Part shown: positions 4,431-53,119 of the stretch, piece after piece
Numbering within the stretch: the stretch's first letter is position 1
Layout of the letters: every line of letters begins with the position of its first letter
Assembly (NCBI GenBank): GCA_965287045.1
Contig: OZ336876.1
Location: forward strand, 26,102,001 to 26,166,000
Direction of reading: 5' to 3'
Length of the DNA: 64,000 bases
Origin: Carcharhinus amblyrhynchos
Taxonomy: Eukaryota
The notes under the pieces: generated by a model
What the model was told of the DNA's origin: nothing
The model's database searches: none
Seen by the model: the letters and a program-made list of their open reading frames with translations, nothing else
Program-made: the position numbers and the translations under genes

Positions 4431-4758
4431 AAGAACATAAGAACATAAGAAATAGGAGCAGGAGTAGGCCATCTGGCCCTTCGAGCCTGCCCCGCCATTC
4501 AATAAGATCATGGCTGATCTGTCGTGGCTCAGTTCCACTTTCCCGCCCTCTCCCCATAACCTTAATCCCCTCTCCTATCAAGAACCCATCAACCCGCTTC
4601 TTAAAAATATTTAGCGAGGCAGCCTCCACCACTTCAACGGGCAGAGAATTCCAGAGATTCACCACCCTTTGAGTGAAGAAGTTCCTCCTCAACTCCGTTC
4701 TAAACCGCCTCCCCTTTATCTTGAGGCTGTGCCCCCTAGTCCTACTGTCTTTTTTGAG
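4431..4758 (-). mobile_element. Young CR1 3' fragment, same subfamily as 51525-52390
   Basis: Reverse complement matches 52062-52390 with about 6 substitutions and 1 indel by manual comparison; same tail; ATT flanks both ends. Confidence 0.93.
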
Positions 4759-50226: not shown

Positions 50227-50849
50227 CAGTTTCCGATGGTGGGTTGGAGGTGGTGGGTCAGTGAGAGTGATTGCAAGACTGGTTTAACAATTAACTAGAA
50301 ATTAGACATTTTTTTCCAACCGTCTAGAGATAGGATGATCTATAGGCCCATTTGCTTTCTTCGTTATCAAGTTGATTTAGTATGGTCACTTTTTTTGTAT
50401 ATATACTTCAGGCAGTGGTTATTGTATTGTGGGGAGCTTGTGGCCAGGTTTCAATGCAGTCATATTTTATCTTCTCTACCCACCTCCTCTTGTTAACGGG
50501 CAAATAATTAATTCTAAAATCTTGAGAGTGTTTGCTCAACAAGTCGAGTGCCAAATACTCAGCTACAAACATCTGAACTTGGCGTAAATTAGCAGCTGAA
50601 CCCATTTCCAGATTTTTGTTCCCAGAGTTTGTTTCCATTAATTAAATACTCATGTCTGCTATATTGTCCGCTTTATGTTATTACATTAGATTTAAGTCTT
50701 TAAATTACAATTTGGCAAAATTCTAATGAATCTTGTGGTGGTGATCTTAGCGTTGGGCCCTGCCAGCCGATGGAGAGGGTGAGCTGGTAAGATCACAGGA
50801 GAGCCGAGAAATCAGGTTCTTGTCTAATATCTTGCCTCTCACGACCTCA

Positions 50850-50968
50850 TAAAAAGTCTGACAACACCAGGTTTAAGTCCATTTGATCAAATAAATCGGT
50901 TGGACTTAAACCTGGTTTTGTCAGACTTTTTACTGTGTTTACCCCAGTCCAATGCCGGCATATCCACA
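50850..50968. mobile_element. Penelope-like family B short hairpin element
   Basis: 31-bp inverted arms with one mismatch; 13-bp TSD TCTCACGACCTCA (50837-50849) / TCTCGCGACCTCA (50969-50981). Confidence 0.8.
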
Positions 50969-51334
50969 TCTCGCGACCTCACCAGCACTGGATGTCTGGC
51001 ACAATCAGCTTCATGCCCATTTCCTTGATGAGGCTGAATATATTATTTAAATATATTTAAAACTTATTTCATATTGATTTGATAAGCCTTGGACAGAATC
51101 GTTTCGGCTCACTTGCCTGTGTGACCTCAGCAGGAAATGTTATCTCTGGCAAGAATAATAGCTAGTCCCCAGTAACAAGGACTAGTTGTGATGGCCTTGC
51201 TGGCAGAACCAGAGCTGCTGAGGCCCCCTGGGGAAGTTGGGAGCAAGAGAGCTGCTCTTTGGGCAGTGCCAACCCACTTGGCACCCTGGCACTGCCCATT
51301 GTCTGTGTTTTAAACATGCTGTCTTTTCTTTCAG

Positions 51335-51422
51335 TCGCATGGGATCAGCAATAACCCTCGTCACCAGGAGTGACTGGCGATTTGCTGCAGAGTTGATTGC
51401 AATTCTGGAACGAGCGTGTCAA
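51335..51422 (+). pseudogene. DDX43: Isolated 88-nt exon of a DDX43-like DEAD-box RNA helicase with its intron flanks, embedded in a transposon insertion
   Basis: Acceptor gtcttttctttcAG, then T + RMGSAITLVTRSDWRFAAELIAILERACQ, then donor CAA|GTACGT. Matches recalled human DDX43 RTGVSITTLTRNDWRVASELINILERANQ, the segment directly after helicase motif VI. No neighbouring helicase exons seen in the window. Confidence 0.8.
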
Positions 51423-51524
51423 GTACGTGTTTATACTTCTCGTGGCGTGCATAAGAATTCACTGATACAGAGAATTCCATTCTAAACATCTCGTCTTTTT
51501 GATTTGATTTATTATTGTCACTGG

Positions 51525-52390
51525 GATACACTGGGCGAATGGGCCAGGAAATGGCAAATGGAATTTAATGTTGGCAAGTGTGAGGTGGTCCACTTTGGTA
51601 GGAATAATGGTAGGAAGGACTATTACTTACGTGGCAAAAAACTGTAGCAGGCGACGGTGCAGAGGGACCTTGGGGTCCTTGTGCATGAGTCGCAAAAACC
51701 CAGCTTGCAGGTGCAGCATGTGGTCAGGAAGGCGAATGGGATGCTGGCCTTCATAGCGAGGGGGATTGAATATAAAAGTAGGGAGGTCTTGCTGCGGCTG
51801 TATAGGGCATTGGTGAGGCCGCAGCTGGAGTACTGTGTGCAGTTTTGGGCGCCGCACCTGTGCAAAGATATTTTGGCCTTGGAGGAAGTGCAGAGGAGGT
51901 TTACTAGGCTGATACCGGAGTTGAGGGGGTTGAGCTATGAGGAGAGGCTGAATAAACTAGGCTTGTACTCGTTAGCGTTTAGAAGAATGAGGGGAGATCT
52001 CATTGAGACGTATAAGATGATGAATGGGATGGATAGGATAGAGGTGGAGAGGCTCTTCCCGCTCAAAAAAGACAGTAGGACTAGGGGGCACAGCCTCAAG
52101 ATAAAGGGGGGGCGGTTTAGAACGGAGTTGAGGAGGAACTTCTTCACTCAAAGGGTGGTGAATCTCTGGAATTCTCTGCCCGTTGAAGTGGTGGAGGCTA
52201 CCTCGCTAAATATTTTTAAGACGCGGGTTGATGGGTTTTTGATAAGAGAGGGGATTAAGGGTTATGGGGAGAGGGCGGGAAAGTGGAACTGAGCCACGAC
52301 AGATCAGCCATGATCTTATTGAATGGCGGGGCAGGCTCGAAGGGCTAGATGGCCTACTCCTGCTCCTATTTCTTATGTTCTTATGTTCTT
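51525..52390 (+). mobile_element. Young 5'-truncated CR1-clade LINE (ORF2 C-terminus, 3' UTR, (TTCTTATG)n tail)
   Basis: Frame LGEWARKWQMEFNVGKCEVVHFG...QRDLGVLVH...LYRALVRPQLEYCVQFWAP...RRMRGDLIETYK...FFTQRVVNLWNSLP is typical CR1 ORF2. Only one stop seen (TAG 51645-51647) and CpGs are retained. Confidence 0.95.
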
Positions 52391-53119
52391 ATTGGGCACC
52401 AGGCACTGCCAATGGGGTGGGGCCTACTTGTGCGTGGGGCTATGCCAGGAGCAACTGGTCAGTGGGGGAGGGGCAGCCCACTGCCTACTCTGCTTCAGGG
52501 ATCATGGGGAAAATGATGGGGGTGTGATCCAGGCCAATCATAGTGGAGGGGAGGGGGTCAGTCTGTCGATTGGGGGGTGGTGGACCACTGATCACAAGTG
52601 GGTCGAATCACCAGTTGTGGAGGGGAGGAGAGAGAGGGGGATTGGTCCAGGCGGGTGGGGGAATCACAGAGTCGATTGATCTTGGCAGGTGGAGTGGTCG
52701 TGATAGGCTGTGGGCCCCCATGGTAGCTATGGAGAAGGAGGTGGATGACGGGGTTCTTCTTTCTGAGGCTGACTGACAGCAGCAGAGGCTGAGTGACAAG
52801 TGTCTGCTGCGAGAGACCTGCATATGCGCAGTACTGACATCTGCTTCTCTCAGCCTGTGTTCAAGCAATTTACTCCTACCCCCTCCCCTACAGGCAAGGA
52901 ACTTTTTCTTTACTCTTAAATAGATAAGATCGCAGATATTAACTTGCTCAAAACCGGATGTGAAACTCTCCCATTTTCATCCCATTCCAGACTTAGAATT
53001 TTTTTGGTAAGATCACCCCTTTGGAGGTTAATGTATTATTCTGTGTTCAAAAATACACATGCAGTTGTAGATGTGCTAAGAACTGGTGAACAAGCATTAA
53101 AACATAATAAAAGGCTGAT

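Follow-up and report, generated by a model that had tools for sequence, protein, structure and literature searches.

LINEs of the CR1/L2 type are regarded as copying only RNAs that bear the element's own 3' end; thus, genomes dominated by CR1/L2 should seldom duplicate pieces of host genes. Unspliced single exons have been dispersed by the L1 system, as in the copies of CFTR exon 9 and of ATM, in which the exon and its intron flanks were spread together with the LINE; the case described here belongs instead to CR1. Template-switch chimeras of stringent LINEs are also known, with U6-L2 and U6-Mon-1 chimeras described in platypus and lizard and one tentative U6-CR1 chimera in turkey (PMC4476161). 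In human, 17 cases are reported in which mRNA sequence lies at the 5' end of LINE-1 (Law and Burns, 10.1101/2025.02.02.635956). Finally, templated extra nucleotides of less than 250 bp, joined by microhomology, can be found between the target and a truncated LINE, as described for the elements ZfL2-1 and ZfL2-2 and for L1 templated insertions (PMC4245944, PMC4760211, PMC2666801, 10.1101/2024.08.27.596794, PMC11702581).

The shark locus analysed here, in which an exon of the helicase gene DDX43 is joined to the 5' end of a truncated CR1, shares features with each of these systems. As in the chimeras of Law and Burns, host-gene sequence is present in sense at the LINE 5' end, inside one target site duplication (TSD). 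However, the human chimeras as described mostly contain first exons, are spliced, often end at a splice donor and include a near-full-length L1, whereas the shark copy is an internal exon, unspliced on both sides, that is joined within an intron, at microhomology, to a short CR1. In the human set 15 of the 17 source genes contain no intronic LINE, with the same caveat of a lost allele that applies to the shark gene, and the chimera tables could include unspliced cases. The U6-L2 and U6-Mon-1 chimeras (TSD 1-9 bp) resemble the shark locus in combining a stringent LINE, a short 3' fragment and a foreign RNA copy at the 5' end, but their partner is an abundant small RNA and they are recurrent, whereas here a protein-coding pre-mRNA or locus has contributed just one piece. 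The extras of ZfL2 and L1 are reported to be mostly templated by flanking DNA, while the shark template lies 20.7 Mb away. A literature search, with most subscription journals outside its coverage, returned no published CR1 that carries a host exon. The new aspect lies in the partner of the CR1, an unspliced internal exon whose source is far away; otherwise the locus is a variant of LINE 5' chimeras that are already known.

The insertion lies in the window, a stretch of 64,000 nt (G000:C7:26102001-26166000) within a genome of 2.92 Gb. Exon segment and CR1 occupy one insertion site (Table 1), and, as read from the sequence, the parts of the insert are all on the + strand. A GT donor at 51423 lies directly 3' of the exon, and the 860-nt CR1 3' fragment has a tail composed of an 8-nt repeat. 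An earlier, sequence-only reading had described this arrangement, an intact 88-nt exon between intron flanks followed in the same orientation by a CR1 3' fragment with its tail, and the analysis confirms it. That reading also placed the two ATTG borders correctly, but started the copied segment at 51302, whereas the segment begins at 51299 because the TTG of the left ATTG also fits the source intron. The AT of the right ATTG also fits the tail repeat. All four TSD bases are thus microhomology shared with the ends of the insert, and formally the target could instead have lost 1 bp. A TSD of 4 bp agrees with the length peak of 3-5 bp reported for L2/CR1 (PMC4245944).

Table 1. Features of the exon-CR1 insertion and its host repeat (window positions)
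Feature	Position	Strand	Remarks
Left host-repeat part	50738..51297	.	old non-autonomous DNA-transposon-like repeat, TIR at ~50738
Left copy of 4-bp target site	51298..51301	+	ATTG; final 3 bases also fit DDX43 intron
End of DDX43 intron preceding exon, copied	51299..51334	+	identical to G000:C7:5489068-5489103; pyrimidine tract, AG
Copied DDX43 penultimate coding exon	51335..51422	+	88 nt, aa 597-626, start phase 2, end phase 0
Start of following DDX43 intron, copied	51423..51530	+	108 nt; 3-nt loss and 2-nt gain relative to assembled source
DDX43 intron/CR1 junction	51525..51534	+	8/10 bases match; crossover at shared A, 51530
Young 5'-truncated CR1-type LINE	51531..52390	+	ORF2 end, 3' UTR, TTCTTATG-repeat tail
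Right copy of 4-bp target site	52391..52394	+	ATTG; initial 2 bases also extend tail repeat
Right host-repeat part	52395..53019	.	terminates in TIR

The insertion interrupts an old element of ~1.1 kb with 14-nt terminal inverted repeats (TIRs). The inverted match of its right end, at 50738, has 2 mismatches, and in 6 of 10 family copies such a match, with no more than 3 of its 14 nt mismatched, lies 0.85-1.2 kb upstream of the right end. Harbinger/PIF elements typically duplicate 3 bp of target (TAA/TTA) and have an autonomous partner that encodes a Harbinger transposase. When inspected by eye, the 3-bp flanks agree in a few copies of the host repeat (e.g. L038) and are not consistently TAA/TTA. 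Thus, the short TIRs of the Harbinger-like element proposed earlier are present, but the flanks are inconsistent, and Harbinger is kept as a candidate label. Another repeat, unrelated to the host repeat, is inserted in the transposon at 50845-50965; it is ~120 bp long, present in very high copy and has 32-nt inverted arms. Copies of the host family align across the empty site in 23 HSPs at 59-72% identity, and the empty site itself is found in organism B, a related organism (run X6, contig 26), where 51298 is joined to 52393 with one base between; the contig extends 357 letters to one side of the join and 708 to the other. The flanks in organism B diverge from the window by ~2%.

The peptide of the copied exon had been recognized from the letters alone as DDX43, and this assignment holds: 29 of its 30 residues match a shark DDX43 (aa 597-626), and the closest DDX43 proteins are those of sharks and rays. 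When three shark proteins are used in tblastn, the whole DDX43 gene is found, in order, on the + strand at C7:5436045-5490946, on the same contig as the window and 20.7 Mb from the copy; this contig contains 4.4% of the genome (128/2924 Mb). The copied exon is the second to last coding exon of the gene. The upstream source exon ends with the first two bases of a Gly codon, the third base being supplied by the copied exon, and a Helicase_C exon 1.7 kb upstream of the source match encodes a peptide that retrieves proteins named DDX43. Window positions 51299-51530 and the source differ over 232 nt by 0 substitutions and 2 small indels, both in the downstream intron, so that the near-identical match anticipated at the true locus does cover the exon and both intron flanks. 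Homology ceases at 51530, with 36 nt of upstream and 108 nt of downstream intron flanking the exon. The segment holds 9 CpGs and the source has the same 9; consequently, the CpG retention that had been singled out earlier is uninformative.

A 209-nt query from the segment has exactly two matches in the genome, the window and C7:5489071-5489280, and a count of further copies thus ends with the source and the window copy. A chimeric multi-copy family is ruled out, since the segment is present at only these two places. A search of the window with shark proteins (tblastn) finds no DDX43 exon besides the copied one, so the window does not contain the real gene, and a genome-wide DDX43 protein search, a stricter first look that sets a floor, reveals no other exon near the window copy among the matches listed. 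With a single exon, and with homology confined to the segment, a second DDX43 gene or a larger segmental duplication is also ruled out. Elsewhere, two intronless DEAD-box helicase ORFs are present, at G000:C17:16183361-16184530 (642-aa open frame, 41% identical to DDX43) and C4:42936828-42938024 (594-aa open frame, 32% identical).

At the point where the intron meets the CR1, the source sequence GATACAATGG and the CR1 sequence GATAGACTGG have 8 of 10 bases in common, and the window crosses from one to the other at the central A. Random pairs reach such a match in 0.33% of 200,000 draws in a post hoc test; thus, the join was probably steered by base pairing. This match suits an RNA or a DNA partner alike, and a primary insertion of CR1 into the intron could yield the same join. 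One of 50 CR1 matches covering the junction (L055) would provide a perfect 6-nt join, but it is only 96.5% like the window CR1 and was not adopted. Among 40 of 200 candidates scored with a junction query, no other CR1 copy is joined to the DDX43 intron. Neither is the 5' end of the segment, at -36, accompanied by a branch-point-like motif when inspected by eye, and a reverse transcriptase (RT) stop at a lariat branch point was rejected. The source has no unusual RNA fold (z 0.0). The jump point (window 51495-51530 / L002:1695-1870) lies inside an apparent older repeat of the DDX43 intron, and many contigs join at 51498.

The LINE is taken to be a CR1 from its tail and from its likeness to the CR1/HER1 elements of sharks; the protein clusters that it matches in Atlas are generic RT/endonuclease only. 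The window fragment is 94-98% identical to many copies and aligns at 97.7% with a longer one, L115, whose 1014-aa ORF contains endonuclease and RT domains (PF03372/PF14529, PF00078). When compared with 58 loci, it has 3 private substitutions in 860 nt; it also contains a premature stop at 51645, with the true ORF2 stop at 52290-52292. A hairpin is predicted just 5' of the octamer tail, although the fold is weak (z -1.1); in CR1 elements, the 3' end is described as consisting of a hairpin and, after it, a microsatellite tail with an 8-nt unit (PMC8665684). Panels of 1,054 kb chosen regardless of family contain 32 young copies, three of them inside DDX43, which extrapolates to on the order of 90,000 young copies genome-wide. 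The frames at L115:3724-6765 and in the matching part of L120 are intact (ORF2 of 1014 and 989 aa), and the element that they share seems to begin near the ORF2 start, ~3.2 kb from the tail. The window contains a second young copy of the family at 4431-4758 (- strand; 330 bp), which shares 98.5% identity with the reference copy, and at G000:C3:40096120-40098900 (L152) young copies are nested, one of them having inserted into another's 3' UTR.

Extra bases at the 5' end were surveyed in 53 young copies, of which 14 had flanks in a suitable repeat family and were callable. Thirteen of these have -9 to +30 extra bases, and the remaining one has 150, which by eye is a direct insertion into a SINE tail. 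Of the 53 copies, 21 come from loci picked for length. Since the method missed the exon-CR1 locus itself, the survey yields no rate. By eye, the ~55 extra 5' bases of one copy (L116, G000:C21:31343606-31351106) are an apparent mosaic of inverted copies of its right flank, and two other young copies (L122 and C12:10029077) have local duplications at the 5' junction. L121, which is very young and lacks a clear TSD, has a unique 5' flank.

The reading that fits these observations best, and that is adopted tentatively, is that RT switched templates from CR1 RNA onto nascent DDX43 pre-mRNA. A young CR1 would have started to insert at a 4-bp site within the old transposon copy, with the enzyme primed at the tail repeat through a 2-nt match to the target. 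After 860 nt of the element's own RNA had been copied, the cDNA end may have re-paired in the DDX43 intron through the 8/10 match; copying would then have continued across the exon and 36 nt into the upstream intron, 232 nt in all, and the cDNA would have been sealed to the target through TTG. The template would be nascent, unspliced RNA tethered near its gene in a germ cell transcribing DDX43, which would explain why the source is on the chromosome of the insertion and why the intron sequence on either side of the exon is unspliced. DDX43 is reported to work in germ cells of mouse and silkworm. The DDX43 segment lies in sense with respect to the CR1, in agreement with what is predicted for switching onto an RNA template (10.1101/2025.02.02.635956, Fig. 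7 legend). Given the 3 private substitutions in the CR1, the exon copy would be predicted to differ from its source by 1.4, against 0 observed (P 0.25). The exon copy and the CR1 therefore look equally old from their substitutions, and a two-step history was set aside since no age gap is seen. It is the sense orientation, the unspliced introns, the germline gene, the same-chromosome source (4.4% by chance) and the equal ages that together fit the RNA switch.

Each of these points has a limit. The insert contains no marks of an RNA intermediate (no intron loss, no editing, 0 substitutions), but nascent RNA would leave none either. A DNA template would yield the sense orientation half of the time, and the junction match, present on both sides of the crossover, equally suits the annealing of two DNA ends. 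Furthermore, other family copies, such as L116 and L122, seem by eye to bear short 5' extras from neighbouring DNA, which would make DNA-templated synthesis common at these junctions. An explanation that the sequence-only reading omitted is that the DDX43 locus was invaded during 5' joining, by the end of either the cDNA or the target, and that 232 bp of genomic DNA were copied by ORF2p on a DNA template or by a host repair polymerase. This is somewhat unlikely, yet it accounts for the same observations apart from the orientation and the kind of gene. Neither intron is spliced; the source and the insertion share a chromosome, and the locus would be close by in the nucleus; and microhomology flanks the segment at both ends. 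The 5' extra nucleotides of L2-type LINEs are reported to be mostly templated by flanking DNA (PMC4760211, PMC4245944), and L1 templated insertions of <250 bp and captured distal DNA fragments are on record. However, the DNA templates described in these sources lie nearly all within bases of the insertion site (within 15 bp), as opposed to 20 Mb here, and both the sense orientation and the germline gene would be coincidence, although the finding was selected for its exon content. Template switching onto DDX43 pre-mRNA, proposed earlier as a second option, fits best, but the present evidence cannot separate it from copying of genomic DNA.

The first option of the sequence-only reading was 5' transduction, in which a truncated CR1 resides in a DDX43 intron and the pre-mRNA is reverse-transcribed from the CR1 tail. 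In the form weighed here, the allele with this CR1 would have been lost since or would still be polymorphic, and reverse transcription would have stopped 36 nt before the exon. The source site would itself suit a CR1, because the bases that come next there match the tail repeat, and the junction resembles an ordinary CR1 5' join with microhomology. The family is also very active, with three of its 32 sampled young copies in DDX43. In organism A (run X5), the 3 nt and the 2 nt of the downstream-intron indels are both present, and the copy has the organism A state at the 2-nt indel, so the template may have been another haplotype. Nevertheless, in the one assembled haplotype the source intron continues past the junction point without any CR1, and the shared CR1 junction that had been looked for there is absent. 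A search of the genome found no second daughter, and neither of the two fixed, sense-strand young CR1s in DDX43 introns has a 5'-transduced daughter (0/2, a weak test in which one search scored 40 of 3806 repeat candidates). The lack of an age gap between the exon part and the CR1 part, and the need for an additional unseen event, also argue against transduction, which is therefore judged unlikely; the idea of a promoterless LINE that borrows the transcription of a germline gene would likewise need an unseen intronic CR1. A broader form, in which dead CR1 3' ends in germline-gene introns act as handles from which the CR1 enzyme copies exon and intron out of host pre-mRNA, with this locus the daughter of a polymorphic or lost DDX43-intronic allele, is more doubtful still.

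The remaining explanation is that the DDX43 segment was inserted by DNA repair and the CR1 inserted independently at the same place, or else that the parts were misjoined in the assembly. Read data bearing on it come from runs X1 and X2, two samples from one study, of which one may be the assembled animal. Each contains a contig (51032-51328) that crosses the left junction with 0 differences and 30 letters on the insert side, and X2 contains a contig (52368-53100) over the tail junction with 0 differences and ~23 letters on the tail side. The depth of the shared DDX43 segment is 1.7-2x that of the flanks in both runs, as expected from two copies; window-type indels in the shared contig may stem from bubble removal, and source haplotypes are not readable there. 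For the middle junction (51530), which is absent from the read contigs shown, the assembly is the sole support, the side junctions fall just under the 31-letter bridging rule and the TSD bases are all ambiguous, but one empty site accounts for both parts, 0-difference contigs cross both outer junctions, the depth is that of two copies and an 8/10 match at the join is improbable by chance, so that separate events or a misjoin are very improbable.

Whatever the template, the copied exon is of little evident use where it landed. It lies inside a dead DNA transposon, without a promoter, and with its 88 nt and phases 2/0 it would shift the frame of most host genes. No host exon was recognized around the insertion: of the 324 window ORFs of at least 50 aa, 150 were scanned and 0/150 match Pfam, a scan that short exons would escape. 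No RNA data set that contains the locus was listed, an outcome without bearing on expression. The exon-shuffling route suggested earlier thus finds little footing here, with one copy, asymmetric phases and no host exon found nearby. The single exon-CR1 copy is predicted to do nothing and is probably a dead one-off.

The locus nonetheless provides a clean young case for which source, daughter and empty site are all available. Its value is that of one data point toward a genome-wide count that could separate RNA jumping, DNA capture and transduction from intronic handles. If the handle reading were true, a LINE supposed to copy only itself would shuffle exons routinely in sharks. What the locus shows is that an intact exon, together with both of its splice sites, can travel 20 Mb along a chromosome as part of a CR1 insertion.
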